From an uncultured Candidatus Saccharibacteria bacterium (GTDB taxonomy: Bacteria > Patescibacteriota > Minisyncoccia > Phycocordibacterales > UBA9973): a stretch of 64,000 nt of DNA. Made by a program: the position numbers and the translations under genes. Every line of letters starts with the position of its first letter. Position 1 is the stretch's first letter. This document shows, one piece after another, positions 1-62,918 of this stretch. The stretch lies in NCBI GenBank assembly GCA_964401705.1, contig CAYNZJ010000001.1, forward strand, positions 3,648-67,647, read 5' to 3'. Below the pieces are notes generated by a model. The model was not told the DNA's origin, made no database searches, and was given only the letters and a program-made list of their open reading frames with translations.

Positions 1-4
1 TTTA

Positions 5-1267: not shown

Positions 1268-1281
1268 TGGAAAGTATAAAT

Positions 1282-3042: not shown

Positions 3043-3050
3043 TCAAGTAT

Positions 3051-6951: not shown

Positions 6952-6975
6952 GCTTTATTTATAGATTTATGTATA

Positions 6976-7042
6976 TGTCGCACAACATACTTTGTCAGAG
7001 GACAATGTCGCAACATGTCGAAGTTTTGCGACGAACGAATCG
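6976..7042. repeat. left boundary repeat (candidate attL), TGTCGCA/TGCGACA dyads
   Basis: tgtcgcacaacatac...tgtcgcaacatgtcgaagttttgcgacg. The same 14-mer recurs at 23533. Confidence 0.5.
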
Positions 7043-7103
7043 AGGCTTGTGAAGAATCATAAATCTAAACTGCAATTATTAATAAATTGATTTTCAATTT
7101 TAT

Positions 7104-7307
7104 ATGCCACAGTATTTAGGAATCTTTTCGCGCCACGATTATACAGACAATGAAGGTAACGCTCAAACCAGATGGTATAAGGCCGGTTACATGAAATTAA
7201 CAGAAAACGGAGGTAAGTTTTTACGCTTCTTCCATCAACCACAAACAGATTTTTTCTGTTTCGAAGGAGAACAAACACCATTGCCCGAAATTCATTTAGA
7301 AGACTAA
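7104..7307 (+). CDS. hypothetical small protein
   Basis: ORF only. Confidence 0.2.
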   Translation: MPQYLGIFSRHDYTDNEGNAQTRWYKAGYMKLTENGGKFLRFFHQPQTDFFCFEGEQTPLPEIHLED

Positions 7308-7319
7308 AGACAATTTTGT

Positions 7320-7823
7320 ATGTCTTTAGAATATACTACACCTGTTCCCAACAGGGTATTCGACTTTGACCTTGCAAAACTTAAAGAAGTTGAATTAAAA
7401 GTTCTGATGGTGGTCATTAGAAAAACCCACGGTTGGGTTGAACAAAAAAACCATCGGCAAAGGCGACAAATTCAACGCATTACAATAAATACTTTCGAAC
7501 TACTAACTGGAAGTTCAAGAAGAAGTATTTCAGGGGCTATTCAATCTCTGATTCAAAAAGAGCTTATCGTGGTCTATGACTATAACGGTAAGGTCTTGAA
7601 AGAAGCGGATGACCGAAAAGGAAAATACCATTTGTATTTTAAACCCAATATTCCACCTGTGGAAAACCACATACCTAGGCAAAATTTGCTCTTACCCTAC
7701 GAAAAATTCTCTCAGCAACCAAAGCAAAATTTGCTCAATACTATTAAAGAAAATATGGCAAAGAAAAATGAAAATATAAATTCATATCATATTAGCCACC
7801 ACATTAAAAATTACAGCCTATGA
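7320..7823 (+). CDS. RepA-like replication initiator / phage replisome organizer N-terminal wHTH domain protein
   Basis: ELKVLMVVIRKTHGW...LTGSSRRSISGAIQSLIQKELI matches the Rep initiator wHTH pattern (vLlyilrktyGw...ltGlsrrtv..al..L...glI). Confidence 0.55.
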   Translation: MSLEYTTPVPNRVFDFDLAKLKEVELKVLMVVIRKTHGWVEQKNHRQRRQIQRITINTFELLTGSSRRSISGAIQSLIQKELIVVYDYNGKVLKEADDRKGKYHLYFKPNIPPVENHIPRQNLLLPYEKFSQQPKQNLLNTIKENMAKKNENINSYHISHHIKNYSL

Positions 7824-8019
7824 CCCAAGACAACCCATTTGGAAATGAACACCGTAAAAATGTAATCGAAAAATTAATGAATGATGGATTAGTTAAGCGA
7901 ATCACAATCATAGAAGGGAACTATCCATCCCAAAAACAACAGCGAGATTTTTTAGACCGAATAATGGATTGGCTCAAAGGAAAGCGAAAGCATTACTAAC
8001 CCATAATCTCACATAAACA

Positions 8020-8367
8020 ATGTCTACAAAACAAAAACAATCCAATAAACCAATAAGTAACTGGCTACTCACTGAAAATGGAGTATACCTACTTATTGGC
8101 GATGGATACCGAATAACTTACAACCCTTCAACCTTATATACCTTCAACCTTAAAAAAGCTAAAGACCCACTCTTTCAATTTGAAGAGGATGAAGAAACAG
8201 AAGAAACTGCACTTTACATCAACGATACAGATTCATATCTAATCTTGGATGGAGACTTTCGAGCAGTATATGATGAATGTCAAAGTGTTGAAGAGTGCTT
8301 AGCTGTCTTCCGAAAATATGCTCCTTGGTACCGTTCAAAGTTCTGCTCCGGTCCAGATTCCATCTGA
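8020..8367 (+). CDS. hypothetical protein (possible antitoxin partner of downstream toxin)
   Basis: Sits directly upstream of the PemK-like gene with a 25-nt gap. No recognisable motif. Confidence 0.25.
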   Translation: MSTKQKQSNKPISNWLLTENGVYLLIGDGYRITYNPSTLYTFNLKKAKDPLFQFEEDEETEETALYINDTDSYLILDGDFRAVYDECQSVEECLAVFRKYAPWYRSKFCSGPDSI

Positions 8368-8391
8368 TTATAAGTATGTTAAAATAGAACT

Positions 8392-8781
8392 ATGTATTCA
8401 AAAGACTATGAGAAATGGAACATTTTAAAACAAAACCTTAATGCTATAAAAGGTCAAACCCTTCGTGTAAAAGAAGGGGAGATTTGGTGGTGTGCTATCG
8501 GCGTAAACATAGGAAATGAAATTGATGGTAAAAATGAGTTATACGAAAGGCCGGTAATTGTAATTAAAAAATTCCCTAATAACAGTTTTTTGGTAGTACC
8601 CCTTTCTAAAACAGAACGCGAACATCAATTTGCTATTCCTTTCGCCATCCAATCAAATCTATCTAAAGCTATAATCTCCCAAGTTAGAGTTGTAAGTCCA
8701 AAACGATTGATACGTCGGATGCACAAACTTTCTTCCAAGAAACTACTGGCAATCACCAATCACTTAAAGCGCATGATATAA
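8392..8781 (+). CDS. PemK/MazF-family toxin-like protein
   Basis: GEIWWCAIGVNIGNEIDGKNELYERPVIVI...VVPLSK resembles the MazF/PemK fold signature (G.i..v.f....G.E..k.RPavVl...). Confidence 0.45.
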   Translation: MYSKDYEKWNILKQNLNAIKGQTLRVKEGEIWWCAIGVNIGNEIDGKNELYERPVIVIKKFPNNSFLVVPLSKTEREHQFAIPFAIQSNLSKAIISQVRVVSPKRLIRRMHKLSSKKLLAITNHLKRMI

Positions 8782-8971
8782 AAAATCGGCTCCCCACAAT
8801 GTGAGGAGCCTCGGGGGCCTGACGGCCACTGGTAAACATAGTATACACCCTTTCAATGAAATTGAAAAGTGGTACTGTGGAAATCTCAACAAACACTAGC
8901 TAACTCTAAACTGGCTGTAAGCCGAAGAATCTGCTATTCATAAAATTTCAAACAACTTAATATTTTAAAAA

Positions 8972-9859
8972 ATGGAAACAAATTCAAAAACAAAAATCGA
9001 CATCTACGAAATGGTAACAGATCGTATTATTCAAAAACTCGAAGAGGGAATTATCCCTTGGCAACAACCCTGGACAGAAGCAGGCCTTCCTAAGAATTTA
9101 ATAACTCAGAAAGCCTACACCGGAATTAATGTCCTTCTCCTTGCATCTATGGGATTTGCTCGTAACTACTTTCTAACCTTCAAACAAATCCAAGAATTAG
9201 GAGGTTCTGTAAACAAAGGCGAAAAATCCATCCCAGTTATTTTTTGGAAGTGGTCTGAAAAAGAGGATCCGCAAACCAAAGAACTAAAAAAAGTCTCAAT
9301 GATACGGTACTATACTGTATTCAATGTAGACCAATGCACCGGAATACCCGAAGACAAGATACCTAAAGTTGTAAATAACAACTGTGAGATTGAGATGGGA
9401 GAGCTTGAAGCTATTATTGAAGAAATGCCAAACAAGCCACTAGTTCGCCATCTTTCATCTCAGGCCTATTATCACCCCAAGGAAGACTATATCAGTATGC
9501 CAATGATGAATGTTTTCAAAGATGCTGAAAGCTATTGGGGAACTCTATTCCATGAACTGATTCACTCTACCGGTCACCAAAGCAGACTTAACCGTAAAGA
9601 AATTGTTGAATGGACTAACTTTGGTTCTGAATCTTACTCCCAAGAAGAACTAGTTGCAGAAATCGGTGCTTGTTATCTTAAATCCCATTGTGGTATTGAT
9701 ACCAAACACTTTGAAAACAATGTTGCCTATATCCAAAACTGGCTCACTAAACTAAAGAATGACAAGCGGTTTATAATCTTCGCCAGTGCTAAAGCACAAA
9801 GGGCGGTGGATTATATATTACAGAAGGTACCTGTTGAAAAAGAGACAGTAGAATTTTAG
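8972..9859 (+). CDS. ardC: ArdC-like antirestriction protein (N-terminal ssDNA-binding DUF1738 + zincin-like metalloprotease)
   Basis: VTDRIIQKLEEGIIPWQQPW...YTGINVLLL...FLTFKQIQELGG, plus an HExxH motif (LFHELIHSTGH). Confidence 0.75.
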   Translation: METNSKTKIDIYEMVTDRIIQKLEEGIIPWQQPWTEAGLPKNLITQKAYTGINVLLLASMGFARNYFLTFKQIQELGGSVNKGEKSIPVIFWKWSEKEDPQTKELKKVSMIRYYTVFNVDQCTGIPEDKIPKVVNNNCEIEMGELEAIIEEMPNKPLVRHLSSQAYYHPKEDYISMPMMNVFKDAESYWGTLFHELIHSTGHQSRLNRKEIVEWTNFGSESYSQEELVAEIGACYLKSHCGIDTKHFENNVAYIQNWLTKLKNDKRFIIFASAKAQRAVDYILQKVPVEKETVEF

Positions 9860-9877
9860 TTATTTAAATTAAAAAAC

Positions 9878-9905
9878 AAACCCTGTGGTTGACATAGGGT
9901 TTTTA
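9878..9905. terminator. bidirectional rho-independent terminator
   Basis: aaaccctgtggttgacatagggttttt: a hairpin between convergent genes. Confidence 0.5.
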
Positions 9906-9915
9906 TTTGAAATGG

Positions 9916-10221
9916 TCAATCATTTTTTTCCATAGAGTAGCTAAAATCATACCAACCCTCTATTGTCATATCTCCTGCAAATCTCTTTTCTAATGTTGTA
10001 AGAAAGGCATCTTTTGCCTTATCAGATGCTAACATTAAAATATCATCCATGTAACTGCATTTTATAAAATACATATTTCCTTTAGATGTTGTTCGCATCG
10101 TACCTGTAAATCCGCCCCATTCTTGAAGTTCAGTAATTGACTTATATACACAATAGACATCGTTATAATCTTCAAGTTCAACTGCGTTAATCCATTCATT
10201 AAAATCTGTAATTGTTGCCAT
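9916..10221 (-). CDS. hypothetical protein
   Basis: ORF; start placed at MATITDF. Confidence 0.3.
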   Translation of the reverse strand: MATITDFNEWINAVELEDYNDVYCVYKSITELQEWGGFTGTMRTTSKGNMYFIKCSYMDDILMLASDKAKDAFLTTLEKRFAGDMTIEGWYDFSYSMEKND

Positions 10222-10304
10222 ATTAAAATAAAATATCAAAAACGAAGGTAATTAATATAAACGAGGATAATAATAATTAAATATAAAATCGATAATTTTA
10301 TCAA

Positions 10305-10328
10305 TTTGTTTGCAAATAGTTTGCAAAT
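10305..10328. promoter_or_regulatory. tandem palindromic TTTGCAAAT boxes (11-nt spacing), copy 1
   Basis: tttgtttgcaaatagtttgcaaat. TTTGCAAA is its own reverse complement. Same arrangement at 10525-10548. Confidence 0.45.
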
Positions 10329-10340
10329 CGTTCCAAATTA

Positions 10341-10364
10341 AAAGGGGTTTCATTTCTGAAACCC
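10341..10364 (-). terminator. rho-independent terminator immediately after tRNA-Leu fragment 3' end
   Basis: aggggtttcatttctgaaacccct is a perfect 10-bp stem, followed by a T-run on the minus strand. Confidence 0.5.
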
Positions 10365-10368
10365 CTTG

Positions 10369-10426
10369 TGGTGCGGATGATAGGACTCGAACCTACACGC
10401 CGCAAAGCACCAGATCCTAAGTCTGG
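10369..10426 (-). tRNA. partial tRNA-Leu(UAG), 3' portion only (anticodon arm, long variable arm, T-arm, acceptor 3' strand + CCA); probable att site
   Basis: Reverse complement reads CCAGA-CTTAGGA-TCTGG-TGCTTTGCGGCGT-GTAGG-TTCGAGT-CCTAT-CATCCGC-A-CCA. The matching 5' acceptor strand (GCGGATG) and D-arm are absent upstream. Confidence 0.55.
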
Positions 10427-10524
10427 CAAAATATGGTTTCATATGGTTTTATATGAATTAATATGTGTTGAATATCAGGTAATTATAATTTTATTGCCAT
10501 AAATGAAACCAAATAAAAGTAATA

Positions 10525-10548
10525 TTTGTTTGCAAATGGTTTGCAAAT
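10525..10548. promoter_or_regulatory. tandem palindromic TTTGCAAAT boxes, copy 2, directly upstream of integrase start
   Basis: tttgtttgcaaatggtttgcaaat ends 12 nt before the ATG at 10561. Confidence 0.45.
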
Positions 10549-10560
10549 TATCTTTGTGAT

Positions 10561-11787
10561 ATGGCTTTCAGTGTTCGAATAGTATTAGATGATAGAAACC
10601 GAAAAAGGGATGGTTTTCCGTTGGTCTTAAGAATTATCGCAAATCGCCATAGTACTTCGATTCCATTGGGTTTATCTTTAGAACTGAATGAATGGAACGA
10701 AAAAAACCAAACAATCCGTACTTCCTGTCAAAAGTTATCGAATGTGACCAGAGAGAATGCTAAGATAACTAAAAAGAGCCAAGAAGCATTTGAGATACTA
10801 TCCCAATTGGATGAAGATGGTGAACTCACCAAAATGAGTATCTCAGATATTAAAAAACGCATCCTAAAAGAAAATAAGCCGACCTTGCTAAGTGATTATA
10901 CAAAAGAAATAATCTCCGAAATGAAGGCTACTGGTAGACTTGGTAATGCCAGATCTTACCACGAATTCTTGCAATGGGTAATAAAATACAACGGGACAGC
11001 AGATATTCCTTTGGAATATTTAACACTGTTATGGATTAAAAAGATGGAACAGAAGTTTTTATCAGCAGGGAATTCGATTAATGGTCTTGGCGTTAAACTT
11101 CGATCCTTAAGAGCTCTTTTAAATAGAGCTATATCGGAAAACTTATTTTCTAAAGAATCCTATCCTTTTAGTCAGTATAAAATAAAAAAACAGGAAACCG
11201 CAAAAAGGGCATTACCTAAAGCTGCAATAACCAAACTTATTAATACACCTATTGAAACTGACCAAATACTAGAAAGGACCAGACGTATATTTCTAATCTC
11301 ATTTTATATGCGTGGAGCCAGTTTTTCGGATATCTGCTTTTTAAAAGTTGGCGATATTAATGATAACCGTATTTACTACAACCGGAGAAAAACTTCAAAA
11401 CTATATAGCATATCTATTTCTGAGCCATTAGCAGAACTTCTTAAACATTTTACCAAAGGAAAAACGGGTAACGATTTTATTTTACCATTTCTAAAAAAGG
11501 AAATGACTTTAGAACAAGCATACTCAGTTTCAAGGTCTGCTCTCGGTGAATACAATAAGAACCTTCGATCACTGGCAATGCATTTTGAGATAAAAGCTGA
11601 TTTCATGTCAACAAATACAATAAGGCACTCTTTCGCATCACTTGCTAGAGATTCAGGCGTGGATGTATCGACTGTTAGTAAAATGCTTGGCCACAGTGAT
11701 TTAAAAACAACTCAAATTTATCTCGCAAGTATAAGCGATGAAACTATCGATGAAGCGTTTGAAATGGTAATGGGTAATTTGGCTTAA
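10561..11787 (+). CDS. int: tyrosine-type site-specific integrase
   Basis: C-terminal catalytic box IRHSFASLARDSG...LGHSDLKTTQIYL (HxxR ... Y). Confidence 0.8.
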   Translation: MAFSVRIVLDDRNRKRDGFPLVLRIIANRHSTSIPLGLSLELNEWNEKNQTIRTSCQKLSNVTRENAKITKKSQEAFEILSQLDEDGELTKMSISDIKKRILKENKPTLLSDYTKEIISEMKATGRLGNARSYHEFLQWVIKYNGTADIPLEYLTLLWIKKMEQKFLSAGNSINGLGVKLRSLRALLNRAISENLFSKESYPFSQYKIKKQETAKRALPKAAITKLINTPIETDQILERTRRIFLISFYMRGASFSDICFLKVGDINDNRIYYNRRKTSKLYSISISEPLAELLKHFTKGKTGNDFILPFLKKEMTLEQAYSVSRSALGEYNKNLRSLAMHFEIKADFMSTNTIRHSFASLARDSGVDVSTVSKMLGHSDLKTTQIYLASISDETIDEAFEMVMGNLA

Positions 11788-11821
11788 CCTCAATTGCAGA
11801 TACTAAAGTAAATATTTAATT

Positions 11822-12100
11822 TTGACGGACATGGAAATAATATGTCTGGAATCAGATGCGCTCTATAATCTCGTTGAAAAGGTTGTTGAAAGATTGAAGT
11901 TACTGGATGGAGTCGCTCAAGAAAAGTGGATATCTGATGTTGAAGCCATGCGAATTTTGAACATAAAATCAAAAACAACCTTACAACATCTTCGCGATGA
12001 TGGAAGTCTAAAATACTCTCAACCAATGAAAAAGGTGATTCTTTACGATAGAGAATCTATAAATGAATATTTAGAAAAACACTCAAAAGATAAATTTTAA
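11822..12100 (+). CDS. xis: excisionase-like HTH (HTH_17) DNA-binding protein
   Basis: WISDVEAMRILNIKSKTTLQHLRDDGSLKYSQPMKKVILYDRESINEYL fits the excisionase-family HTH pattern. Sits directly after int. Confidence 0.5.
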   Translation: MTDMEIICLESDALYNLVEKVVERLKLLDGVAQEKWISDVEAMRILNIKSKTTLQHLRDDGSLKYSQPMKKVILYDRESINEYLEKHSKDKF

Positions 12101-12101
12101 A

Positions 12102-12389
12102 ATGGAAGAACTAGAAGTAACTCCACCGGAACAATATTTAAAAGGATTTAATAAAGGATATAGTTTTTCAAAAACATATCCTGATGCAGGTCAGCAGGTA
12201 TTAGATATTTTTTCTTCTCAAACTAACCTTTCCAGTGAAAATGACTTTACCTCAGTTACTGGTATGATTGATGGAATTAATCAACATAAAATTGAACAAG
12301 AAAGAGAATTGATAAATGAAAGCTTGGAGGATATCAAGGATTTACGAAATCAACAGGCTGAGGAAAAGTCTCCTGACCTAAATATTTAG
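12102..12389 (+). CDS. hypothetical acidic protein
   Basis: ORF only. Confidence 0.25.
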   Translation: MEELEVTPPEQYLKGFNKGYSFSKTYPDAGQQVLDIFSSQTNLSSENDFTSVTGMIDGINQHKIEQERELINESLEDIKDLRNQQAEEKSPDLNI

Positions 12390-12475
12390 TATAGTAAAAT
12401 AATAATGATACAAGAAGAGGATTTGTCGGTTGGAGAATCGGCAGAAAGCAATATTGTATTGAGGCTAATGCCATG

Positions 12476-12504
12476 ATAGGACTGATTTCAGTCCTATTTT
12501 TTTA
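12476..12504 (+). terminator. rho-independent terminator; also contains 11-nt direct repeat of the tRNA-Leu fragment (ATGATAGGACT)
   Basis: ataggactgatttcagtcctat hairpin followed by ttttttt. Confidence 0.5.
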
Positions 12505-12557
12505 TTTCATGGTTGTGTCTCTAGATGGCTTCTACTCAAAAACAAAATGCTATATTT

Positions 12558-14033
12558 TTATACCATTGGTTGAAAATCTAAATAATATTTAGCATTAAGT
12601 TCATTTTCAAATAAACATACGTTATTTTCATAAAAAGTTATGGTTGAGTAAATAGGATTTAAACATATATTACCTTCACTAGTTAATGCGCCCATTTTAT
12701 TATTATTTTTGATGAGTAAATAGAATAAATGTAGTTTTCTTTTTTTAAAATTTACAACTCTTTCATAATCAATAACACTTGTAACCATTTCATTATTGTT
12801 TTTATCGAACCCAACCACTTCTTTTGTAAATCCAAGATTTTTGAGAAAATATGGTTGCTTTTTAGGTGAATCTAAAAGCATATTACCAAATATGCCAAGA
12901 ATTTCAAATTTTGTCGATTTGGTTCCAACAATTTCTCCGTTAAACAAGTATAGCTTGTCATTTTTAATAAATAGAAATATTTTCTTATTATTCATAGAAT
13001 AAAAGGTGAGACAAAACTCGAAATCAATCTTTATTACATATTTTAAATCATCACAATCCTTAAGATACTCTGTTAAAAAAATATCTCCAACGATAACGGG
13101 TTTATCATTTTGTTTTACTTCCTCAATTGAAACACTCTTTTGAGTGTCTAAAACAATTTTGTTATAAAATGTGGGTTTAATTTCAAGGGAATCCTTCTTT
13201 TGTTTATCTTTTACAAGTAAATGATTAGCTTTATTAGGAACCTCACTAATAGACTCTATGGATTTATTTTTTGCTAACTGATATTTTACTATTTCTTGAT
13301 TTAAGGCATTATTCTTCGTATTGAGTGAATTAATTTCCTTCTGCAAATCTTGTTTTGATTTTTCAAGACCAATAATTGAATTATTGAGATTTTTTAGTTC
13401 AACCTTATTGTTTTTCTCGATCTCACTATTTTCATTTTTTAATATATGAATTTGGTCCTGCAATACAATTTTTTCATTCGAAAAAGCCATTTTGATTTCT
13501 TCTATTTGCAATTCATACTTCTTTTGGATAAAAGGTTCTTGATAGTTCTTTCTCTGATTTGCCAAATCTCTTATGTTTAATTCGTTTAAAAAAGTAGAAA
13601 GTTTACTTGATTTTTCAAAATCAAAATGCACAAGAGCCTTAGGGATTTTTATATTAAATTCAAGTTTAAAAAAATTTAAAATATGTTCATAAATTAGCTG
13701 TTCTATTTGATTAATTTCTAACTGCTTAGACTTTTTAATGGGTTTAGAAGAAACTTTATGAGTTGAGTTATTTCGATATTTTCTAAATGCTTGCAGGATA
13801 TTTTTATTCTTCACATAAAACGAATATTTCACATTTAATTCGCCTAAAGACTGCATCAACATAAGGTTGTCATAATAGAACTTATTACTATTACCTTCTT
13901 TTAAAAAGACCTGTGTTTCAGCTATCTTTTCACAAACTAAATGTAAAGCTTCTTTTTTGTCCTTATCAATCTCACTTGAAACCGATATATGGAAAGCCAA
14001 TAAAATTTCTTTTAATTGTTCATAAATATTCAT
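12558..14033 (-). CDS. hypothetical protein, N-terminal domain + central coiled coil + C-terminal beta-rich domain; translationally coupled to RtcR-like regulator
   Basis: Its start overlaps the stop of the upstream regulator by 14 nt. Long heptad-like stretch (EIKMAFSNEKIVLQDQIHILKNENSEIEKNN...). No motif I recognise. Confidence 0.35.
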   Translation of the reverse strand: MNIYEQLKEILLAFHISVSSEIDKDKKEALHLVCEKIAETQVFLKEGNSNKFYYDNLMLMQSLGELNVKYSFYVKNKNILQAFRKYRNNSTHKVSSKPIKKSKQLEINQIEQLIYEHILNFFKLEFNIKIPKALVHFDFEKSSKLSTFLNELNIRDLANQRKNYQEPFIQKKYELQIEEIKMAFSNEKIVLQDQIHILKNENSEIEKNNKVELKNLNNSIIGLEKSKQDLQKEINSLNTKNNALNQEIVKYQLAKNKSIESISEVPNKANHLLVKDKQKKDSLEIKPTFYNKIVLDTQKSVSIEEVKQNDKPVIVGDIFLTEYLKDCDDLKYVIKIDFEFCLTFYSMNNKKIFLFIKNDKLYLFNGEIVGTKSTKFEILGIFGNMLLDSPKKQPYFLKNLGFTKEVVGFDKNNNEMVTSVIDYERVVNFKKRKLHLFYLLIKNNNKMGALTSEGNICLNPIYSTITFYENNVCLFENELNAKYYLDFQPMV

Positions 14034-15570: not shown

Positions 15571-15935
15571 ATTTTAGATATCGTACTTGTTAAAATCAAA
15601 AAAGTACCTTGTATGGTTTGAAATGGGAAACAAACTTAAATATTGAATAAGGATAACCTTTTTGCAAAAAGTAAATAAAAAACCCCCTCATATGTGAGGA
15701 GGCCGAAGATTTTTCAACAGTGTAAGTAGCAATTGCCTCTAACCTGATTAATGATCGCGATTCACCAATCAGAGGTACCAGGTTCATCGGGTACTGGTAT
15801 ACATACAATCATAAAGAACATCTTCGTAGGAGCCTTGCATAAAGTATAGCATAAAGTTATTTAAATGTCAAGATTAATTAATTGTAAATCAATTATATAC
15901 AGTGAAATGCTTATTAGAATTACGAAAAAATAAAA

Positions 15936-15955
15936 ACCCTCAATTTTAATTGAGG
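15936..15955 (-). terminator. hairpin + T-run on minus strand (possible terminator of a minus-strand non-coding transcript)
   Basis: ccctcaattttaattgaggg is a perfect 9-bp stem. The minus-strand reading is followed by tttttatttttt. Confidence 0.3.
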
Positions 15956-15967
15956 GTAAAGAATTTG

Positions 15968-16130
15968 TTGATGTAGAAGCCTCAGAATTCACCATGCCTC
16001 ACGCCTAAGACTGGATGTAAGATAAGGAGGGCCACCAACGCCCTTTTGACATCAATGTTGATGTAGAGGCCTTTAAGATTTGCCATATAAATATGGTTGG
16101 GTTAAACAAAAAGGGCCACCAATCATTGTA
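15968..16130. repeat. two ~17-nt direct repeats TTGATGTAGARGCCT, each followed ~85 nt later by AGGGCCACCAA
   Basis: Seen at 15968 and 16056; one copy lies within the palindrome ACATCAATGTTGATGT. Confidence 0.4.
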
Positions 16131-16373
16131 ATAGTCGAAGAACTAACTCTTTGTTCAATTGTAGCATATTTGATATTATTTGTCAAATAATGATAATAAA
16201 AGTCAATAAATGAATACAAATAAAGAATAAATTTCACATTGCCATTTTTTAATGTATTGATTATGAGTAATATGTATTTTATTTAAAATTAGGTAACCAA
16301 TTTGTATTTTCTAAAGCAAAATTGATTTAAACCCAAACTAACAAATCTCAATTAAAACTCAAAACGTAAAAAC

Positions 16374-17516
16374 ATGGAAAACAAAAACACAATCGTCTAC
16401 ACAAACTATCACCATGAAGGAATTGACAACTACCTCGCATCATGGAAAAAACAAACTTCATCAGAAGTGCAACTAAAGGCGAAAACCAACGCCGGAAAGA
16501 AATTACCGAAAGCTATCGGTGATGATTTTAAACGGTACATTGGTTACTTTAAGGAAAAAGCTCAGGAATGTCTTCGAGACATAGATCGAATCTTAAAAAT
16601 CACTCCTGTTTTATTCAAGATCAAACAATTACGCGATAAACGCGATGAGATGGTCTTTAAAGCTAATGGAAAAAAGGAGGAGTTGGAATCAAAATCTGTT
16701 TCGCTCAATCCTGATGCCAATCACGCCGAACACAAATTAGTTAGAGCCGGTTCCATAATCGCTTTACTTATTCTTGTACTACTAAGCACAGCAGAGACCT
16801 TTCTGTCTTACAAACCGTTCTATTATCTAACAGGTAACAAAGTTTCCACCTGGACTATTTGTATTGTATTCGCAATACTTTGGATAATCGGAGCCGAGAA
16901 ATTTTCTAAGTTCATCAAAGATCAAGCGATTACAAAAAAAGGTATCAAACTTTTCTTTATTATCATAGCCTGCACCTTTGTATTCTATAGCATCGCCCAT
17001 TTACGTGTTTTAGAGAAAGCTTGTTCACGAGCTATTTTAAACGAAGAACCAATCCCAAGCTTTTTTGCTATCAACTTTACTGAAGCTTTAGTCCTTACAG
17101 GAATAGGCTGGGTGTTTTTCATCGGTGGGGTTTGGGTTTCTCAACTATCGCCATCTATTCAAGAAGTTAGGCAAGCCCTGATCCAAAGATTTAACCGAAG
17201 GAAGGCATTAAAAATTCAAAAGGAAATCTTACTTCTACAAGCTGAAATTGACGCAGAAAACGAAAAAATAGCCAAAGAAGAGCATGCAGCCATTTCTCTC
17301 TTAAATATACGTAAGCAGGCAATTAAGGAGGTTGTAGGCTATCTAGAATTCCTTTGCGAGGAGTACAAGGAGGTTAACTATTCATCACGTGTTGATGGTG
17401 TTTACCCCGACTGCTTTAACGAAAAGGTAACTTATGACATGGATACAATTGTACCTAATATCAAGGAAGATCTGGAATTTCAAATGGATAACGCTAACGC
17501 ATCTAAACTTAAATAA
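16374..17516 (+). CDS. hypothetical polytopic membrane protein with C-terminal coiled coil
   Basis: Several predicted TM helices (IIALLILVLLS, WTICIVFAILWIIG, LFFIIIACTFVFYSI, LVLTGIGWVFFIGGVWV). Confidence 0.3.
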   Translation: MENKNTIVYTNYHHEGIDNYLASWKKQTSSEVQLKAKTNAGKKLPKAIGDDFKRYIGYFKEKAQECLRDIDRILKITPVLFKIKQLRDKRDEMVFKANGKKEELESKSVSLNPDANHAEHKLVRAGSIIALLILVLLSTAETFLSYKPFYYLTGNKVSTWTICIVFAILWIIGAEKFSKFIKDQAITKKGIKLFFIIIACTFVFYSIAHLRVLEKACSRAILNEEPIPSFFAINFTEALVLTGIGWVFFIGGVWVSQLSPSIQEVRQALIQRFNRRKALKIQKEILLLQAEIDAENEKIAKEEHAAISLLNIRKQAIKEVVGYLEFLCEEYKEVNYSSRVDGVYPDCFNEKVTYDMDTIVPNIKEDLEFQMDNANASKLK

Positions 17517-17518
17517 TT

Positions 17519-18217
17519 ATGAAGACACTAATATTTACATCACTCATTCTAATTCTAATTGGATGTTCAGAAAACAAAGGAATTATCGAAAAGGAAGTCG
17601 TCTGTGTCATTGATGGCACAGATACTACCATCCATAAACCATCATTCAAAGAAATCAAACCCTTTTTGAATTTAACCGACAATGATTTTGGGTTGGTCTT
17701 TAAAACTAAAATGATAGGGGATATTGATTTCGGAAATTCTTTCGAGCTAAGTTTAAGCCCCAAGGATTATAGTATCGACGAAACCATTGAAGATCGGTTT
17801 TTCCGAAAAAAGAAGTTTTTAAAACATGCTCAGGCCGGATATTTAAAAGTTTCCTCCACCGCAACTCCTAAGGATCACTCAATAATTTATCGGGTAATCG
17901 CCAAGGAACTTAATAAGTTATCAGGTTCAAAAGCCAAACAGCGTACCTTGTTGGTAAACTCAGATCTTATGGAGAATTCAAAGGAACTTAATTTCTATAA
18001 TCCGAGACACTATAGCCTACTAATGAACAGCCCATGTGAAGTGGAGAAATTACTTATTAGACAATTGAAATTAATGGATTTAAAAGGCATTGAAGTTTAT
18101 TTCCTTTTTCAGCCAAAAGATTTCTATCAGAACGATACGTACAAAGCAATCTTGGACATTTATATCAAGATAATTAGCGAGGCAGGCGGGGTTTGTAAAA
18201 TCGGTAATGAATCTTGA
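17519..18217 (+). CDS. hypothetical lipoprotein
   Basis: Signal peptide with lipobox MKTLIFTSLILILIGC. Confidence 0.35.
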   Translation: MKTLIFTSLILILIGCSENKGIIEKEVVCVIDGTDTTIHKPSFKEIKPFLNLTDNDFGLVFKTKMIGDIDFGNSFELSLSPKDYSIDETIEDRFFRKKKFLKHAQAGYLKVSSTATPKDHSIIYRVIAKELNKLSGSKAKQRTLLVNSDLMENSKELNFYNPRHYSLLMNSPCEVEKLLIRQLKLMDLKGIEVYFLFQPKDFYQNDTYKAILDIYIKIISEAGGVCKIGNES

Positions 18218-18267
18218 CAATTTCGGCTTGAAAAGCGAAAATGTAACTACAGAAGTATCAGAATTAA

Positions 18268-18297
18268 AACGGGGATTGGAATTCATTCCCCGTTTTA
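18268..18297 (+). terminator. rho-independent terminator
   Basis: aaacggggattggaattcattccccgtttt. Confidence 0.45.
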
Positions 18298-18329
18298 TCT
18301 TAAACAATCGAATAATAGAATAATTATAA

Positions 18330-18506
18330 ATGGCTCACAAACAACATAGCGGTGGTATCGGCAACTTTCTATTGGGGGCAATAAAATTTATCGTGAAAGT
18401 CATATTTAGAATATGTGTTTTAGTATTGGTATTCATCGGTAAATTAATTGTCGCAATACTCGAAAAGATTATAGAGGTGGCGGAACACAAACATAATAAA
18501 CACTAA
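18330..18506 (+). CDS. small membrane protein (58 aa; not in supplied ORF track)
   Basis: MAHKQHSGGIGNFLLGAIKFIVKVIFRICVLVLVFIGKLIVAILEKIIEVAEHKHNKH. Sits directly upstream of the coupling-protein gene. Confidence 0.25.
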   Translation: MAHKQHSGGIGNFLLGAIKFIVKVIFRICVLVLVFIGKLIVAILEKIIEVAEHKHNKH

Positions 18507-18518
18507 CCAAATAAACAT

Positions 18519-19952
18519 ATGTTAGATATAATCGAAAGTCTATTCAAATTAATCTTCGAATTAATAACGGAGATATTCAAGGTTATTTTTAATGTCGCAC
18601 CGGATAAAAAAACCAAACTTGATGCAGGGTTTATGAAGGTAAGCAAATTGCTTTCCAGTTGGAATAAAGGGTTTTGTTTAAATGGAACTAAACATATTGG
18701 AATTAAGGCTAGCCATACATCTTGTCTTGTCCTCGGAGGAAGTGGCTCCGGCAAAACAGTATCAGTCTGTATACCAACGATTTATAATTTAGCCAAACAT
18801 GGACATAGCATTACTGTCCATGACCCATCGTCCGAATTGTATAATAATGTATCTGGCTACCTAGAATACTTAGGCTATTCAATAAAAGTAGTAAATTATT
18901 CAAATCCTAATATTTCAGATGGCTTTAATCCGATGTATCGCCTAAAAAATAGTGCCTCTGAAACACAAAAATTAGCATCGCTATTGGTACGAAATTCAAT
19001 GGGTGAAAATAACAAGGATCCGTTTTGGCAAACACAAGCATCATTACTTATTTATTTGATTATGCGAGTGTTGCAACACAAAAGCCACTGGTATCAAAAT
19101 TTAGCTAATGTAAAGAGGGTTCTGGACAATATGACAACCAAACCGGAAGCAATGGATATTTTAGTTGCGGAATGTAGAGATGAATCAATTTTATCGGAGT
19201 ATAAAAACTTTCTAATATTAGATAAGAAGCTGTATACCAGTATTATAAGTAGTGCAAGAGCCGCTTTATCCATTTTTACGGACCCTTTGGTTCAGACAGT
19301 AACGGCTTACGATAGTATTGATTTTGACTCTTTTCGGAAAGAAAAAACTGCCCTTTTTATTAACAACAAAACCGGAGATATCAAATACTATTCAGCGCTT
19401 TCATCTGTATTTTTTGAGCAGTTTTTTTCAAGTATAATGGATAAACTACCAAGTAAAGAGGATAAAAATATCTTCTTCATTATTGACGAGTCATCCTCGC
19501 TTTATTTACCATCAATGCAAATTGCTTTAAGCAACCTCAGAAAGTACAAGGCTGGAATAATGAATATTGCGCAAGACTTTAATCAGTTCCATATTTACGG
19601 AAGTCAAGAGGCAGAAGCAATTCGGACTAATTCATTTGCTAAAATATATTTCCCAGGACAACCCCTCAATACCGCCCAGGAATTAGAAAAATTACTTGGA
19701 TCTTTTGAATTTGAAGATGAGAAAGGCAATCGAAGAACTAGACCTCTTATGACCATAGATGAGATTCGGGCAATGGAACCGAATACAGCTTTAATTGTTG
19801 CTGGTTCTAATCGCGCAGTATTTACCAAGATGAAACCTTATTTTAAATCCTATAAGTATAAAAACTTATCAAAATACGCATTACCAGAAAGGCAGAGCCA
19901 AATACCCTTTGAAGAACTTCCATTAATACCATTACCAAATAAAATCAAATAA
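18519..19952 (+). CDS. type IV secretion coupling protein-like ATPase (VirD4/TraG/TraD family), lacking N-terminal TM region
   Basis: Walker A GGSGSGKT and Walker B IFFIIDESSS, with the usual spacing for this family. Confidence 0.6.
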   Translation: MLDIIESLFKLIFELITEIFKVIFNVAPDKKTKLDAGFMKVSKLLSSWNKGFCLNGTKHIGIKASHTSCLVLGGSGSGKTVSVCIPTIYNLAKHGHSITVHDPSSELYNNVSGYLEYLGYSIKVVNYSNPNISDGFNPMYRLKNSASETQKLASLLVRNSMGENNKDPFWQTQASLLIYLIMRVLQHKSHWYQNLANVKRVLDNMTTKPEAMDILVAECRDESILSEYKNFLILDKKLYTSIISSARAALSIFTDPLVQTVTAYDSIDFDSFRKEKTALFINNKTGDIKYYSALSSVFFEQFFSSIMDKLPSKEDKNIFFIIDESSSLYLPSMQIALSNLRKYKAGIMNIAQDFNQFHIYGSQEAEAIRTNSFAKIYFPGQPLNTAQELEKLLGSFEFEDEKGNRRTRPLMTIDEIRAMEPNTALIVAGSNRAVFTKMKPYFKSYKYKNLSKYALPERQSQIPFEELPLIPLPNKIK

Positions 19953-19974
19953 TTCCACCTTTTAAATATTCAAA

Positions 19975-20418
19975 ATGAAAACAACGAAATCAAATATCAA
20001 CAAAGATGATGTTCTAGTTAGAGCATCCTTTGAACTTTTTAATATGAAAGTTAAAGAGACCGAATCTGAACTATCAAAAATTGAAGTTGAACGTAATGAT
20101 ATTATTCAATCCATAACCAACTCAGAAACTGGAATAGCTAGTGACATTGAACGGTCACGACTTGATGAATTATCTGAGCGGGAAGCAACCCTTCATGAAA
20201 AATGGAATGACCTTGAACTGTCCTATCAAGTTGGTAGTCTGAGTGAATCTATTCAACAAGAAGACCAACAACCCACTAATGAAATAGAAGATCAATGGTT
20301 TGAAGATTCCAAATCTGAATATACTGAATCAGAAATTGAAGAGACAATGGATGAATTGAACGAAATAAGAGATGCTCAGTTATCGCAAGAACATGAACTG
20401 GATATGCCAGATTTTTAA
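19975..20418 (+). CDS. hypothetical acidic protein
   Basis: ORF; rich in Glu/Asp. Confidence 0.25.
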   Translation: MKTTKSNINKDDVLVRASFELFNMKVKETESELSKIEVERNDIIQSITNSETGIASDIERSRLDELSEREATLHEKWNDLELSYQVGSLSESIQQEDQQPTNEIEDQWFEDSKSEYTESEIEETMDELNEIRDAQLSQEHELDMPDF

Positions 20419-20433
20419 TTTTTACAACACTCA

Positions 20434-20880
20434 ATGAAAAAAATCCGAAGCACAGAACTCTTTAAATTCCTTCAGTTGAAGGGGGTTCTTGGTGGTTCGG
20501 ATATCGAAATTAAAAATGCTAAACATCAATATCGGGCAGAGTACAAACGGAAATGGAAACAAGCTCGCCTAAAGATTAAACCAGAACTTAGACCAAACTT
20601 CACAAAAAAAGAAATCGAATCCATCTCAAAAGCTGCCAAAGTTAGAGGCCTTACAAGTACAAACTTTGTTCGACAGTCTGCGCTTAGTCTTGCCTCAAAC
20701 AAAACCCTAATTCCAAATCAGGATAAACTATTAACCATTTTACAGAAATTAAGTATGGCCGGTATAAAAATCTCTAACAAAAAAGGTAACCCATTTTACG
20801 ACCCAGAAGTTAAAGAAGCCGACGACCTGCTTCAAGAAACTGAGAAATTATTGATGGCATACTTAGGTTATGATTATTAA
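20434..20880 (+). CDS. mobC: MobC-like mobilization (relaxosome accessory) protein
   Basis: KIKPELRPNFTKKEIESISKAAKVRGLTSTNFVRQSAL fits the MobC pattern R.....vRlT..E...l...A...G.S.S.y.R. Confidence 0.5.
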   Translation: MKKIRSTELFKFLQLKGVLGGSDIEIKNAKHQYRAEYKRKWKQARLKIKPELRPNFTKKEIESISKAAKVRGLTSTNFVRQSALSLASNKTLIPNQDKLLTILQKLSMAGIKISNKKGNPFYDPEVKEADDLLQETEKLLMAYLGYDY

Positions 20881-21760
20881 GTTATTGTCTCGCCATAGTC
20901 CTTCTTACGGGGGATTGATAGACTATTTACTCAAAGAAGGAAAAGGTGGAGATGACAAAACCCCTGAACCGCTACTTCATAATTTCCGAGGAACCAATAA
21001 AAATGAATGGGTAAAAGAGCTCTGTCAAAACGAAGCCTTTCGAAAAAACCCTCGAAAAGGTCAAATATACTTCCAACACGCTATCCTATCATTTAATAAT
21101 CTTGATTCACAAAACTTAACACCGGAGATATTAAAAGATCTGACTCAAAAATTTATTGAATTAAGAGGAAAGGATGGGATGTATCTAACTGCCCAGCACA
21201 ATGACCGAGATCATCTTCATATACATTGCCTAATTTCAGGACTTAAATTCAAAACTGGAAAGGCTTTTCGCTTGCCAAAAGACAAACTGAAAGACTTGAA
21301 AGTTCAACTTCAGAACTACCAAATAGAGAAATATCCCGAACTCAAAAATTCATTACCAAACCATGGATCTGGAAAAGAATATCTTACACCAAATGAATAT
21401 GGTGCTAAAATTAAAAACTCTAAATCCTATAAAAAATCTGAGCTAGCTCTAAAAATTAATGAGATTCTCAACACTTCAAGCACACAAGAAAATTTCCTTG
21501 AAAAGCTACGAGAGCAAGGCTACCACCATTATGAAAGAGGAGGCAAGATTTATGGAATTACGCTTGATGATAAAAATTACCGGTTTAACACTTTGGGGGT
21601 TAGCTTGGACAAAATGAATTCTTTGCCAAATGATCTAACTCAAGAAGAACAGGCATTGAAGGAAATAAGTGAGTTACGTCAACAGATGGAAACTAAAAAG
21701 GAAATCGAAACCGAACAAGACATTCCCGACGGGGATGAACCACCTTTACCCAATTTATAA
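20870..21760 (+). CDS. MobA/VirD2-family relaxase (mobilization nuclease domain)
   Basis: LLSRHSPSYGGLIDYLLKEGK N-terminal motif and histidine triad QHNDRDHLHIHCLIS (HxDxxHxHxH). Confidence 0.65.
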   Translation: MIIKLLSRHSPSYGGLIDYLLKEGKGGDDKTPEPLLHNFRGTNKNEWVKELCQNEAFRKNPRKGQIYFQHAILSFNNLDSQNLTPEILKDLTQKFIELRGKDGMYLTAQHNDRDHLHIHCLISGLKFKTGKAFRLPKDKLKDLKVQLQNYQIEKYPELKNSLPNHGSGKEYLTPNEYGAKIKNSKSYKKSELALKINEILNTSSTQENFLEKLREQGYHHYERGGKIYGITLDDKNYRFNTLGVSLDKMNSLPNDLTQEEQALKEISELRQQMETKKEIETEQDIPDGDEPPLPNL

Positions 21761-21884
21761 AAAAGGGGAATCGAAAGGGTCTCCCTTCGCAAGATCACAT
21801 GACCATTGGTCTGTAAGAATTACAGTCGACCGAGGGTCATGTTATCTTGCCAACTGCGCGTTGGGGCGTTTTAAACACTTGACA

Positions 21885-22316
21885 ATGAAAGATATAGAGC
21901 GTAGTGTAAATAAAAACAATAAAATGAAAAAGAGCAATTTATCAAAATTTTTAGTTTTGCTGACAGTTATTACGGCTATAACGTCGGGGTATTTTATAGG
22001 AGTACACAAATGCAAACAAGACATCGTAGAACATCTACCACTATCGATTCCACGAAAAATTAGAATTCGAACCTATGAAACAGTAAAAAACCTAAATGCC
22101 GATTCAATTATAAAGCCGTTTTTTGAAAGCTTTGAGTATCGCGAAGTTAATGTTAATTTATCCGGTGTTTTGTTACCAGGAAAGTATACTGGCTTGGTTA
22201 GATTTAAATCAGAATTAGGCACTAGTCAATGGTATGCAATAGATGCTTTTGCTTTAGATTTATCAACATTTATTGATACTTCTAAGATTGAAGTTATTGA
22301 CGGATATATTCCATAA
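21885..22316 (+). CDS. hypothetical membrane-anchored protein
   Basis: Start reset to MKDIERS, downstream of the relaxase overlap. Has a TM helix FLVLLTVITAITSGYFIGV. Confidence 0.3.
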   Translation: MKDIERSVNKNNKMKKSNLSKFLVLLTVITAITSGYFIGVHKCKQDIVEHLPLSIPRKIRIRTYETVKNLNADSIIKPFFESFEYREVNVNLSGVLLPGKYTGLVRFKSELGTSQWYAIDAFALDLSTFIDTSKIEVIDGYIP

Positions 22317-22339
22317 TTAACACATCAAAAAATAAATTA

Positions 22340-22368
22340 AGGGAGATTTCACTCCCTTTTTTATATTT
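22340..22368 (+). terminator. rho-independent terminator
   Basis: aagggagatttcactcccttttttat. Confidence 0.5.
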
Positions 22369-22593
22369 GTACAGACCAAATGCCTAAAAATCAAAAGCCA
22401 AATCAACCTAAATCAAATGAATTAGATAAAAAATCTGAAGTATCACCGAAAGAGAAGAAGGTAGAATTTTGGACATTTATCAGAGAACATCAGTTAATAC
22501 CTGCTGCAATTGGAGCAGTATTAGCAATAATAGGTATTATTTGTACTTGGTATCTTTGGAAAAGACACCTCTGTATCAGACATTACAATTCAA

Positions 22594-23340
22594 ATGATAA
22601 TCGCATACCATCAAGGTATGGAATCAATTGAAAACTATAGCAAAGGCACCATCGCTTATTCATGCCGTATCATAAAAAACTTTTTCGAGTATATCTCGGA
22701 TTGTAATATTGAATGCCTAAATCCAAAACAAATCCGGTCACTAAAATACGTTCAACCGGATAAAGATATAATGACTTCAAGTCTTTTAAAAAGAATGGAC
22801 AATGAATTGAATGAACAATTTTATGAAGACCTAATCATAAAGTTGATGGTTCATATTCTATACGATACTGGTATGCGTGTATCTGAACTTTGTGATTTGG
22901 ATATTTCAAATCTTGAAGAAACAGATACGCCAGGCTTGCGCTGTGCAACCATTCGACGTCGCAAAAGTTTGCGATACAACACGGTTGTATGGGGAAAGGA
23001 AACAAACCGCTTGATGAATCTTTATTTAGGATTAAGGTTATGTTTGGATGTAAATCAAACAGACGCCTTATTTGTAAATAGGAAATCAAAAGGGAACAGG
23101 ATAACGACTAGAACCGTTCAACGATGGATAAAGGAAATTTGCATGCGAGCAAATATTCAAGAGAATATAACACCGCATAGTTTTAGGCATGGTAAAGCCC
23201 ATCAGGTTTTAAACCAGAGTGGTAATGTTAGAGATGTGCAAGCAATCTTAGGCCATGTAAATCCGGCTTCATCATTTAGTTATCTTTCGTTAAACCGTCA
23301 AAGTCAGATATCCGTGTCAGGGAAGTACTTGCCTTCTTAA
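22594..23340 (+). CDS. tyrosine recombinase (XerD-like; possibly N-terminally truncated or frameshifted relative to ORF 22380-22631)
   Basis: HSFRHGKAHQVLNQSGNVRDVQAILGHVNPASSFSYL catalytic box. N-terminus YSKGTIAYSCRIIKNFFEYIS resembles the core-binding domain. Confidence 0.65.
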   Translation: MIIAYHQGMESIENYSKGTIAYSCRIIKNFFEYISDCNIECLNPKQIRSLKYVQPDKDIMTSSLLKRMDNELNEQFYEDLIIKLMVHILYDTGMRVSELCDLDISNLEETDTPGLRCATIRRRKSLRYNTVVWGKETNRLMNLYLGLRLCLDVNQTDALFVNRKSKGNRITTRTVQRWIKEICMRANIQENITPHSFRHGKAHQVLNQSGNVRDVQAILGHVNPASSFSYLSLNRQSQISVSGKYLPS

Positions 23341-23532
23341 AATACTTGCAAAGAATATTATGTGGTTATATAATATTATCAAGCACTTAGATCTTATGAA
23401 ATTTACAAGCTTCATTCACTTATTAATCTAAAAACTGATTGGGTTAATAAATGATAATGAAGTTGGTAGCGATAGCATTAGGGAAGAGATAGTAAGACCA
23501 GTTATATGGCTTATTATTTTTTACTTCACTGT

Positions 23533-23560
23533 GTCGCACAACATAGATTTTGCGACATAT
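23533..23560. repeat. right boundary repeat (candidate attR)
   Basis: tgtcgcacaacatagattttgcgaca repeats the 14-mer and the TTTTGCGAC motif seen at 6976-7042. Confidence 0.5.
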
Positions 23561-23595
23561 ATATAATACTAATATATAATAAAGCTTTTAAATCT

Positions 23596-62841: not shown

Positions 62842-62918
62842 ATTATTCGAATTATTCTTTTTCCTTTCTGTTAGGCCCCTCTTTTGATTTAGCCAGGGCA
62901 ATCCTATTTATTAATAAA

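Follow-up and report, generated by a model that had tools for sequence, protein, structure and literature searches.

The closest described counterparts of the element reported here are the integrative mobile elements exploiting Xer (IMEX), represented by the gonococcal genetic island (GGI) of Neisseria and LME-1 of Legionella, which take a dif-type site near the replication terminus as their target and which by definition encode no recombinase of their own but hijack the host Xer system. After integration GGI and LME-1 are each bounded by one intact dif and one modified site, an arrangement that stabilises the insertion (PMC5357621; PMC9765430). A different organization is found in the Coxiella burnetii virulence plasmid, where a XerL gene lies beside a dif-like site and a related site is present in the chromosome (PMC9765430). 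The 64-kb stretch of Patescibacteria DNA analysed here (referred to throughout as the window; G+C content ~30%) contains an element of 16,556 bp, at positions 6990-23545 when one copy of a 14-bp core repeat is counted, and as an explanation of the whole locus we favour, as likely, a plasmid-like mobilizable element inserted site-specifically at the candidate dif of a Patescibacteria chromosome. A sequence-only reading of the same DNA had proposed an integrated mobilizable element at this position, and this proposal is borne out by empty sites in related genomes, by a boundary repeat that is not dispersed and by the presence of a relaxase and a type IV coupling protein (T4CP) without a VirB4.

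Judged by its asparagine synthetase gene asnB, the host is an uncultured Patescibacteria bacterium of Paceibacteria/Nomurabacteria-like affinity: a genome scan with asnB places it in the Patescibacteria, the gene being 90% identical to that of the metagenome-assembled genome (MAG) L012 and 70-75% identical to those of Ca. Nomurabacteria and similar MAGs (L013-L015, L026). As the sequence-only reading had stated, rpmA and asnB flank the block. On the left, rpmA (6101-6373, minus strand; ribosomal protein L27, PF01016) is 88-94% identical in L012-L015 and L026, while on the right asnB (23596-25428, minus strand) encodes GATase_7 and Asn_synthase domains. The immediate left neighbour of the insertion is nevertheless not rpmA but a host gene for a protein of 162 amino acids (aa), p162 (6463-6951, plus strand), which is convergent with asnB, is 47-75% identical in five relatives and has no match in Pfam. 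In these five relatives (L012-L015 and L026) asnB, p162 and rpmA are adjacent without the element, the empty site that the sequence-only reading had suggested looking for, and tblastn finds none of the element genes at this locus. All five of the five relatives thus lack the block, which excludes its conserved synteny as an explanation of the arrangement. The spacers of the empty loci (95-nucleotide (nt) scale) hold a common 28-mer, (A/G)TGTCGCACAA-CATAGA-TTTTGCGACA, and the empty site rebuilt from the window agrees with them. In L026 about 450 bp of extra sequence (9006-9470) lies between the 162-aa gene and the 28-mer and contains an open reading frame (ORF) for a 64-aa basic protein, unrelated to the element.

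That the block is a genuine site-specific insertion with the boundaries given here we hold to be all but certain. An exact 14-bp repeat, TGTCGCACAACATA, brackets the element at 6976-6989 and 23532-23545, the two copies in the 64-kb window comparing with 0.01 expected by chance, and TTTTGCGAC is present at 7024 and 23548. In what had been described as imperfect direct repeats the 14-mer, twice present in 64 kb, is therefore real, but its right-hand coordinate was off by one base (the true start is 23532) and the repeats are reinterpreted as the attL and attR sites that result from recombination between an attP mimicking dif and a conserved 28-bp dif-like site of the chromosome. Nor are the boundary sequences scattered over unrelated loci, there being one copy of the 28-mer in each relative and no other in 1.69 Mb of fetched DNA. 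On the plus strand, attL (6975-7002) reads ATGTCGCACAA-CATACT-TTGTCAGAGGA and on comparison with the empty sites and attP is a hybrid in which the left arm comes from the host and the element contributes a degenerate right arm, with the core repeat at 6976-6989. The attR site (23531-23558, plus strand), GTGTCGCACAA-CATAGA-TTTTGCGACAT, is an intact 28-bp dif-like site that includes the core repeat at 23532-23545 and stands at the point where the GC skew flips.

The attP sequence, GTGTCGCACAA-CATACT-TTGTCAGAGGA, is known from related elements whose ends are joined, while attB is the 28-mer. In these elements (L092, L093/L094, L095/L096, L097 and L099) the genes follow the order IntS (the tyrosine recombinase adjoining the right junction in the window), a spacer of ~300 bp, a 67-aa gene and the initiator gene. 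Since the recombinase gene is there followed by the 67-aa and initiator genes and the remainder of the window's left end, the right and left ends of the window element are contiguous in its relatives, in keeping with a plasmid-like element. Window 22558-23544 aligns to L092 4716-5699 and window 6976-9816 to L092 5687-8527, the overlap being the 13-nt core, and the junction in the related elements, AGTGTCGCACAACAnGCTTTGTCAGA...TGTCGCAACAaTGTCGAAGTTTTGCGAC, is conserved where the recombinases are 68-92% identical. The non-coding spacer between IntS and the core (23341-23530, plus strand) is conserved and forms part of the attP region, lying in a segment 87% identical to L092 and 85% identical to the remnant in strain L003 described below. 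The attL and attR of the window are the exact reciprocal products of attB and attP, so that comparison among relatives demonstrates attB, attP, attL, attR and the empty sites alike.

In the recombination event, attP (GTGTCGCACAA-CATACT-TTGTCAGAGGA) recombined with the host 28-mer ((A/G)TGTCGCACAA-CATAGA-TTTTGCGACAT), the crossover lying inside the shared TGTCGCACAACATA, which takes in the left arm and bases 1-4 of the central region. One intact site (attR) is thereby left in the host and attL has the degenerate right arm, a feature that is reported to make excision less favoured in GGI and LME-1 and should do so here. As catalyst we infer either an intact ancestor of IntS, acting before the gene lost its 5' end, or the host Xer. 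A folded single-stranded attP of the CTX-phage type is not supported, given a fold z-score of -0.98 and essentially no covariation. A scan of IMG/VR with the attP pattern returned one chance match inside a coding region (L109), and a scan with the dif pattern returned no match. A second dif-like palindrome, site II (7005-7034, plus strand; ATGTCGCAACA-TGTCGAAG-TTTTGCGACGA), is conserved in all six family members (window, L092, L093, L095, L097 and L099); it starts 2 nt past the attP core site and has the dif right arm with a longer spacing between the arms.

Both junctions recur in an independent assembly, contig JACCDG010861153.1 of GCA_013558375.1 being 100% identical to window 6844-24131, and the left junction is also covered by a Logan contig of SRR10036058. 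The near-identical host strain L003 (GCA_013565695.1; left flank 99.8% identical), which was considered as an empty site and set aside, carries at the site a 0.59-kb remnant of a different family member (L003 575-1151, equivalent to window 6971 / 23309-23558). The remnant consists of 343 nt that match nothing fetched and include two direct repeats of ~70 nt, continues with 220 nt that are 85% identical to the right end of the element and ends in an intact 28-mer; the 3' end of asnB in L003 is only ~93% identical to that in the window. Because L003 holds the remnant of a different family member, the site has been a target at least twice, and the insertion is a polymorphic one.

We consider the 28-mer the probable dif site of this lineage, located at the replication terminus. 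It is an imperfect palindrome of 11-6-11 architecture in which the arms match at 9/11 positions. Its 26-nt core (23532-23557) is identical in L012, L014, L015 and L026, with 1 mismatch in L013, and the whole 28-mer, central region included, is kept at the nucleotide level although the flanking proteins are only 47-75% identical. Ordinary terminator hairpins stand separately beside it in the empty loci, so the 28-mer is not simply a terminator. Left of the site the window has a GC skew of +0.08, and L003 one of +0.11 over 11 kb; on the right the value is -0.14 over 40 kb, where the housekeeping genes (ATP synthase, release factor, dnaK/dnaJ, alaS and metK) are all on the minus strand. The same change of sign occurs at the site in the relatives and gene orientation converges on it, and it is because skew and gene orientation flip here as expected at a terminus that the site is a candidate dif. 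In the more distant Patescibacteria loci L018 and L021, whose asnB is ~50% identical, a related site, CGTCGCACAA-TGTATC-TTTGCGACA, is again intergenic and again at a flip from plus to minus skew. The criteria used here are those applied in recognising dif in Legionella and Coxiella (PMC9765430), and our literature searches found no paper on dif, Xer or the terminus in Patescibacteria.

Near-palindromic sites are to be expected of Xer systems with a single recombinase (PMC5357621), and like the sites of XerH/difH, XerS/difSL, XerA/dif and XerL/dif the 28-mer has near-identical inverted 11-bp arms (9/11) around a 6-bp centre. Its sequence is unrelated to difH, difSL and archaeal dif, and no host recombinase gene is seen in the 64 kb. 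The left arm of attP in the related element L099 (CGTCGCACAAT, L099 17980-18010) is nearer to the site of the distant Patescibacteria, CGTCGCACAA-TGTATC (L018 18222, L021 18832), than to the window-type site. There are hints in these sequences that attP may track the dif sequence of each element's host.

The gene adjoining the right junction, IntS (22558-23340, plus strand), encodes the second tyrosine recombinase that had been placed at 22594, the start of the longest remaining ORF (22594-23340); that it is a recombinase stands, and it proves in addition to be Xer-like and, in this copy, truncated at its 5' end. In PDB it matches XerA, XerD and a XerC-like protein best, and the NCBIfam scores, obtained with the truncated window copy, fall below the cut-offs (XerA_Arch 119 vs 220, XerD 104 vs 330, XerC 102 vs 335). 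Full-length homologues have 290-306 aa, and the homology of the window copy starts at codon 47 of a 306-aa homologue, 46 N-terminal codons having been lost. The corresponding 138 nt are replaced by unrelated sequence with an 83-aa ORF. This lies in a segment with a 193-aa and an 83-aa ORF (21735-22631, plus strand), neither of which has a family match. That the 83-aa ORF might be the missing N-terminus, separated by a frameshift, was rejected: the DNA homology to L092 simply begins at 22558 and the sequence upstream is unrelated. The window IntS would lack part of its core-binding domain and is hence probably impaired. Like XerL of the C. burnetii plasmid, IntS is an Xer-family gene directly beside a dif-like site on a plasmid-like replicon, and the primary role of such an Xer/dif-like module is likely to be multimer resolution, with occasional integration into the chromosome. 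In contrast to the Coxiella plasmid the integrated state is seen here directly, with attL and attR defined, and IntS belongs to a different Xer-like lineage from XerL, its XerA, XerD and XerC scores being below the family cut-offs.

The element contains a second integration module, for which the sequence-only reading had noted a tRNA-Leu 3' fragment beside a tyrosine integrase. The fragment is confirmed at 10369-10434 on the minus strand, where it runs from the anticodon arm to CCA of a tRNA-Leu(UAG) and is followed by a terminator (10342-10367, minus strand), although neither ARAGORN nor Rfam called a tRNA there. The integrase, IntB (10561-11787, plus strand; Arm-DNA-bind_5, Phage_int_SAM_5 and Phage_integrase domains), is of Bacteroidota type. 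It is followed on the plus strand (11822-12389) by an Xis-like HTH_17 gene (11822-12100; 32.7 bits) and a 95-aa gene, homologues of both of which also follow the integrase in L099. The tRNA core sits between two tandem pairs of GTTTGCAAAT arm sites spaced 220 nt apart (two at 10308-10328 and two more at 10528-10548), in what is best described as an unrecombined IntB attP (10304-10548, no strand assigned). An integrase encoded in a Bacteroidota chromosome shares 64% identity with IntB. Where such a 64%-identical integrase is integrated (L106, with neighbours carrying Por_Secre_tail and CHU_C domains) only the integrase-proximal arm pair is present and host terminator sequence lies beyond the tRNA fragment, whereas in an un-integrated relative of the same identity (L107) both arm pairs are present in the same layout as in the window. 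Because both pairs are present as in L107, the window module is an unrecombined attP, and the role in this insertion implied for the tRNA-adjacent integrase falls away: as read from its attachment site, IntB is not the enzyme that made the insertion and its module is intact and unused here. A Bacteroides finegoldii record matches the tRNA core at 94.7% identity and Firmicutes records match it at ~80%, figures that are only suggestive as PLSDB holds no Patescibacteria. A metagenome scan with IntB found no close relatives. The related element L099 appears to be opened at its own integrase end, which suggests that the family can use either integration route.

Several observations weigh against insertion at a dif site of the host by an Xer-type reaction, and some of them favour a conventional integrative mobilizable element (IME) whose IntS targets a dedicated attB, a conserved intergenic palindrome such as a regulatory site or terminator, with neither dif nor the host Xer involved. 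The family's own recombinase gene lies directly beside attP, and the strict IMEX definition, in which the host Xer is hijacked, consequently fails. A full-length homologue of IntS, P0001, has 28% identity over a 152-residue local match to the chromosomal Xer of another Patescibacterium, the one such Xer compared, and 44% identity along its entire length to a protein of Flavobacteriia that is annotated as XerD. The 28-mer is unlike the canonical XerCD dif consensus, and no host Xer gene is seen in the 64 kb of host DNA. Its single-copy status refers to the fetched DNA; the skew flip moreover coincides with a flip in gene strand, so that these two signals are not independent. The window IntS, lacking its 46 N-terminal codons, may be inactive, no origin of transfer (oriT) was identified in the element and the window contains no genes of a type IV secretion system (T4SS). 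A dedicated attB would nevertheless not readily account for a 28-mer that is conserved through its centre while the flanking proteins are 47-75% identical and terminator hairpins stand apart from it. Its 11-6-11 architecture is typical of Xer sites, it coincides with a terminus-type skew flip, a position shared by the related site of L018 and L021, and the element enzyme is itself Xer-like. The asymmetry of attL and attR is also that of known dif-integrating elements, and on balance we think the conventional IME unlikely.

Two further explanations would dispense with the dif-type junctions altogether, and we find both highly improbable. In one, the block was integrated by IntB into a tRNA-Leu gene, or consists of two independent elements lying side by side; the tRNA-Leu fragment does adjoin an integrase and an Xis-like gene, such integrases do enter tRNA 3' ends, as the 64%-identical homologue in L106 illustrates, and L099 is a related element that appears to be opened at the integrase end. 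The presence of both GTTTGCAAAT pairs around the tRNA core, 220 nt apart, nevertheless matches un-integrated L107 and not integrated L106, and the window contains neither a complete tRNA-Leu gene nor another copy of the core. The host flanks meet the dif-type junctions rather than the IntB module, and the genes on either side of that module form one backbone that is contiguous in L099. In the other, a Bacteroidota-derived plasmid contig has been misjoined to a Patescibacteria chromosome in assembly or binning, as the Bacteroidota affinities of the integrase, the relaxase and the Xer-like gene might suggest, together with Logan contigs that break at 6970 and 23532. Against this stand the NCBI contig across both junctions and the Logan contig from another sample across the left one, and a misjoin would not yield an attL and attR that correspond exactly to reciprocal recombination between attB and attP sequences observed independently. 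The contig breaks, whose candidacy as co-existing empty sites was rejected, are explained by the co-occurring L003-type variant, which diverges at 6971 and has a single-nucleotide polymorphism at 23531. Site-specific insertion of a plasmid-like element at a candidate dif remains the reading that we favour.

The transfer genes of the element lie together on the plus strand. The T4CP (18519-19952) is VirD4-like, with a T4SS-DNA_transf match of 171 bits and TrwB_AAD_bind and TraG-D_C domains. Its best NCBIfam match is the Firmicutes-type CD1115 family (conju_CD1115; 195 bits vs a cut-off of 250), and its identity to any PLSDB plasmid protein is <=30%. The relaxase (20870-21760) has a nuclease domain of MobA/VirD2 type (PF03432, 56.8 bits vs a cut-off of 24.6) with the His-rich motif HNDRDHLHIH; it scores 31 bits vs 250 with NCBIfam TraI_MobP and is <=29% identical to proteins in PLSDB. 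It has 28 homologues in 5.8 billion proteins, the named ones belonging to Bacteroidota at ~42% identity. Between these two genes, 19975-20880 encodes an acidic protein of 147 aa and a putative relaxosome accessory protein of 148 aa (20434-20880), which had been called MobC. The gene for the latter is conserved in L099, where it immediately precedes the relaxase gene, and is present close to the T4CP gene in L098. By position the MobC call is plausible, but there is no Pfam MobC match and only sub-threshold matches to NikA and HI_0552 were obtained. Further upstream, 16374-18217 encodes 380-aa and 232-aa transfer-module proteins for which searches of Pfam, NCBIfam, PDB, PADLOC and PHROG gave nothing useful. 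In L093 and in Mucilaginibacter L098 a homologue of the 232-aa gene, ~31% identical, precedes the T4CP gene. For the 380-aa gene only L093 gives a match, a weak one, and L099 matches neither gene.

With a relaxase and T4CP present and no VirB4-type domain among the ORFs of >=83 aa scanned against Pfam, the earlier view that the element is mobilizable rather than self-transmissible is upheld, as is nearly every gene call within the block by searches of Pfam, NCBIfam and PHROG. Because it has no mating-pair-formation genes, the element would rely on a T4SS in trans, its relaxase and T4CP docking onto a system such as the chromosomal T4SS of Patescibacteria. That system is of monoderm type and almost universal in the phylum, with T4SS present in 2,417/3,035 genomes, and relaxases are rare (103/3,035) (PMC12102498).

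The remaining backbone genes begin, on the plus strand, with the 67-aa gene upstream of the initiator gene (7104-7307), which is 59-98% identical in L092, L093, L095, L097 and L099. The replication initiator (7320-7823) is a winged-helix protein resembling phage O (PF04492 23.5 bits, below the cut-off; TIGR01610 27.9 bits; PHROG 3e-11). It is followed at 8020-8781 by a 115-aa putative antitoxin, named by position only, and a PemK/MazF toxin (8392-8781; PemK_toxin 46.6 bits), a pair conserved in L092 and L095, and then by an ArdC anti-restriction protein/zincin metallopeptidase (8972-9859; ArdcN 117 bits, MPTase-PolyVal 123 bits). These three functions (initiator, PemK module and ArdC) speak for a plasmid-like phase. 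Assignment of the element as a plasmid-like IME whose backbone modules serve replication, maintenance/establishment, transfer and recombination is supported.

Cargo differs between family members. In the window it comprises the integrase module and an operon on the minus strand (12558-15570) that encodes a 491-aa protein, without a match in Pfam, PADLOC, NCBIfam or PDB and with nothing useful from PHROG, and an RtcR-like CARF-AAA+-HTH protein (14020-15570; PADLOC RtcR_PspF2--CARF_AAA_HTH 428 bits, Sigma54_activat 210 bits). The operon may be a signalling or defence module. A homologous RtcR-like regulator in L099 (1826-5205) is paired with a TPR protein instead of the 491-aa protein. Elsewhere the cargo is a patatin and a DUF4007/PAPS-reductase cluster (L092), restriction-modification systems and SMC-like ATPases (L093, L095) or SIR2 or TIR proteins (L097, L099). 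Between the RtcR-like gene and the transfer genes lies an 800-nt non-coding spacer (15571-16373) that is not conserved in L099. It has two strong promoter-like sites on the minus strand (16186-16158 and 15871-15843), both with an extended TG and each followed by a minus-strand terminator (15957-15936 and 15704-15681), delimiting candidate small RNAs of ~200 and ~150 nt with fold z-scores of -2.1 and -2.8 and no Rfam match; an Rfam search of the element gave only noise.

Elsewhere in the window, three features of host DNA may be recorded. To the left of the insertion site, over positions 1-4754 and, in L003/L005, past the left edge of the window, the host has a tandem array of four paralogous genes for a Cys-rich protein (~570 aa) that Pfam does not match. 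It adjoins a gene for a 490-aa ATPase with weak matches to T4CP, HerA and TrwB. At 61648-62901, on the minus strand, a host gene encodes a 417-aa protein with a Schlafen/AlbA_2 domain.

Compared with the established classes of mobile elements, the window element shares the features of an IME, being integrated in the chromosome with attL, attR, attB and attP all recovered and empty sites in five relatives, encoding its own integration enzymes (two tyrosine recombinases, of which the one beside the used junction is 5'-truncated) and carrying a PF03432 relaxase and a T4CP without mating-pair-formation genes. As in IMEX, attP mimics dif by one arm and part of the centre and integration restores an intact site; the family departs from the rule that such elements have no recombinase of their own, an Xer-like gene adjoining attP in every family member, and it is on this ground that the strict definition fails. 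Dependence on the host Xer is possible for the window copy only, its gene being truncated. No VirB4 or other recognisable T4SS component beyond the T4CP is present, as an integrative conjugative element (ICE) would require, and, in contrast to NBU-like integration, no boundary is formed by the tRNA-Leu fragment, which lies inside the element in attP configuration and keeps its arm-site pairs on both sides. The element therefore acts like an IMEX yet is outside the strict definition, and it is neither an ICE nor integrated in the manner of an NBU.

These relationships extend to individual systems. With GGI and LME-1 the element shares a target near the terminus that is probably of dif type and an attP of one dif arm and part of the centre, the other arm being divergent; like GGI it carries conjugation-type genes, and like LME-1 it has revealed a previously unknown dif site, here a candidate. 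Unlike either it combines an initiator of plasmid type with a relaxase and T4CP that are not accompanied by a T4SS and with an additional integrase module directed at a tRNA; its host belongs to the Patescibacteria and its target is a putative dif. NBU1 of Bacteroides has as its target the 3' end of a tRNA-Leu gene. Like NBU1 and NBU2, the window element is small, has a tyrosine integrase of Bacteroidota architecture with an attP on a tRNA 3' end and encodes a relaxase without mating-pair-formation genes, so that transfer would need a helper conjugation system. In contrast to the NBU type its tRNA-Leu module was not used for this insertion, its host lies outside the Bacteroidota and its relaxase and T4CP are distant from Bacteroidota MobB and MobC (NCBIfam 24 and 28 bits vs cut-offs of 400 and 900).

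Patescibacteria have tiny genomes, a near-universal chromosomal T4SS and almost no relaxases, and it is still a question how, if at all, DNA passes between them by conjugation. A relaxase- and T4CP-bearing element with clean edges, empty sites in relatives and presence or absence between near-identical strains offers a concrete case for gene flow. The insertion also points to a candidate dif sequence and terminus of this lineage by the same logic through which LME-1 revealed dif/XerL in Legionella. With two integration modules, one of them of clear Bacteroidota affinity, a single backbone may have the means to establish itself in hosts that are very unlike each other. In a speculative and rather unlikely extension of this view, the family passes between Bacteroidota and Patescibacteria by means of two alternative integration systems, a Bacteroidota-type integrase with a Bacteroidales-like tRNA-Leu 3' end as its attP core and an Xer-like recombinase with a dif mimic matching the Patescibacteria terminus site. 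Were this correct, the chromosomal T4SS of Patescibacteria, thought to be mostly non-conjugative, would be a conjugation channel for relaxase-plus-T4CP elements, with conjugation possibly taking place across the contact between epibiont and host, and the 28-mer would be the first dif site defined for this radiation.

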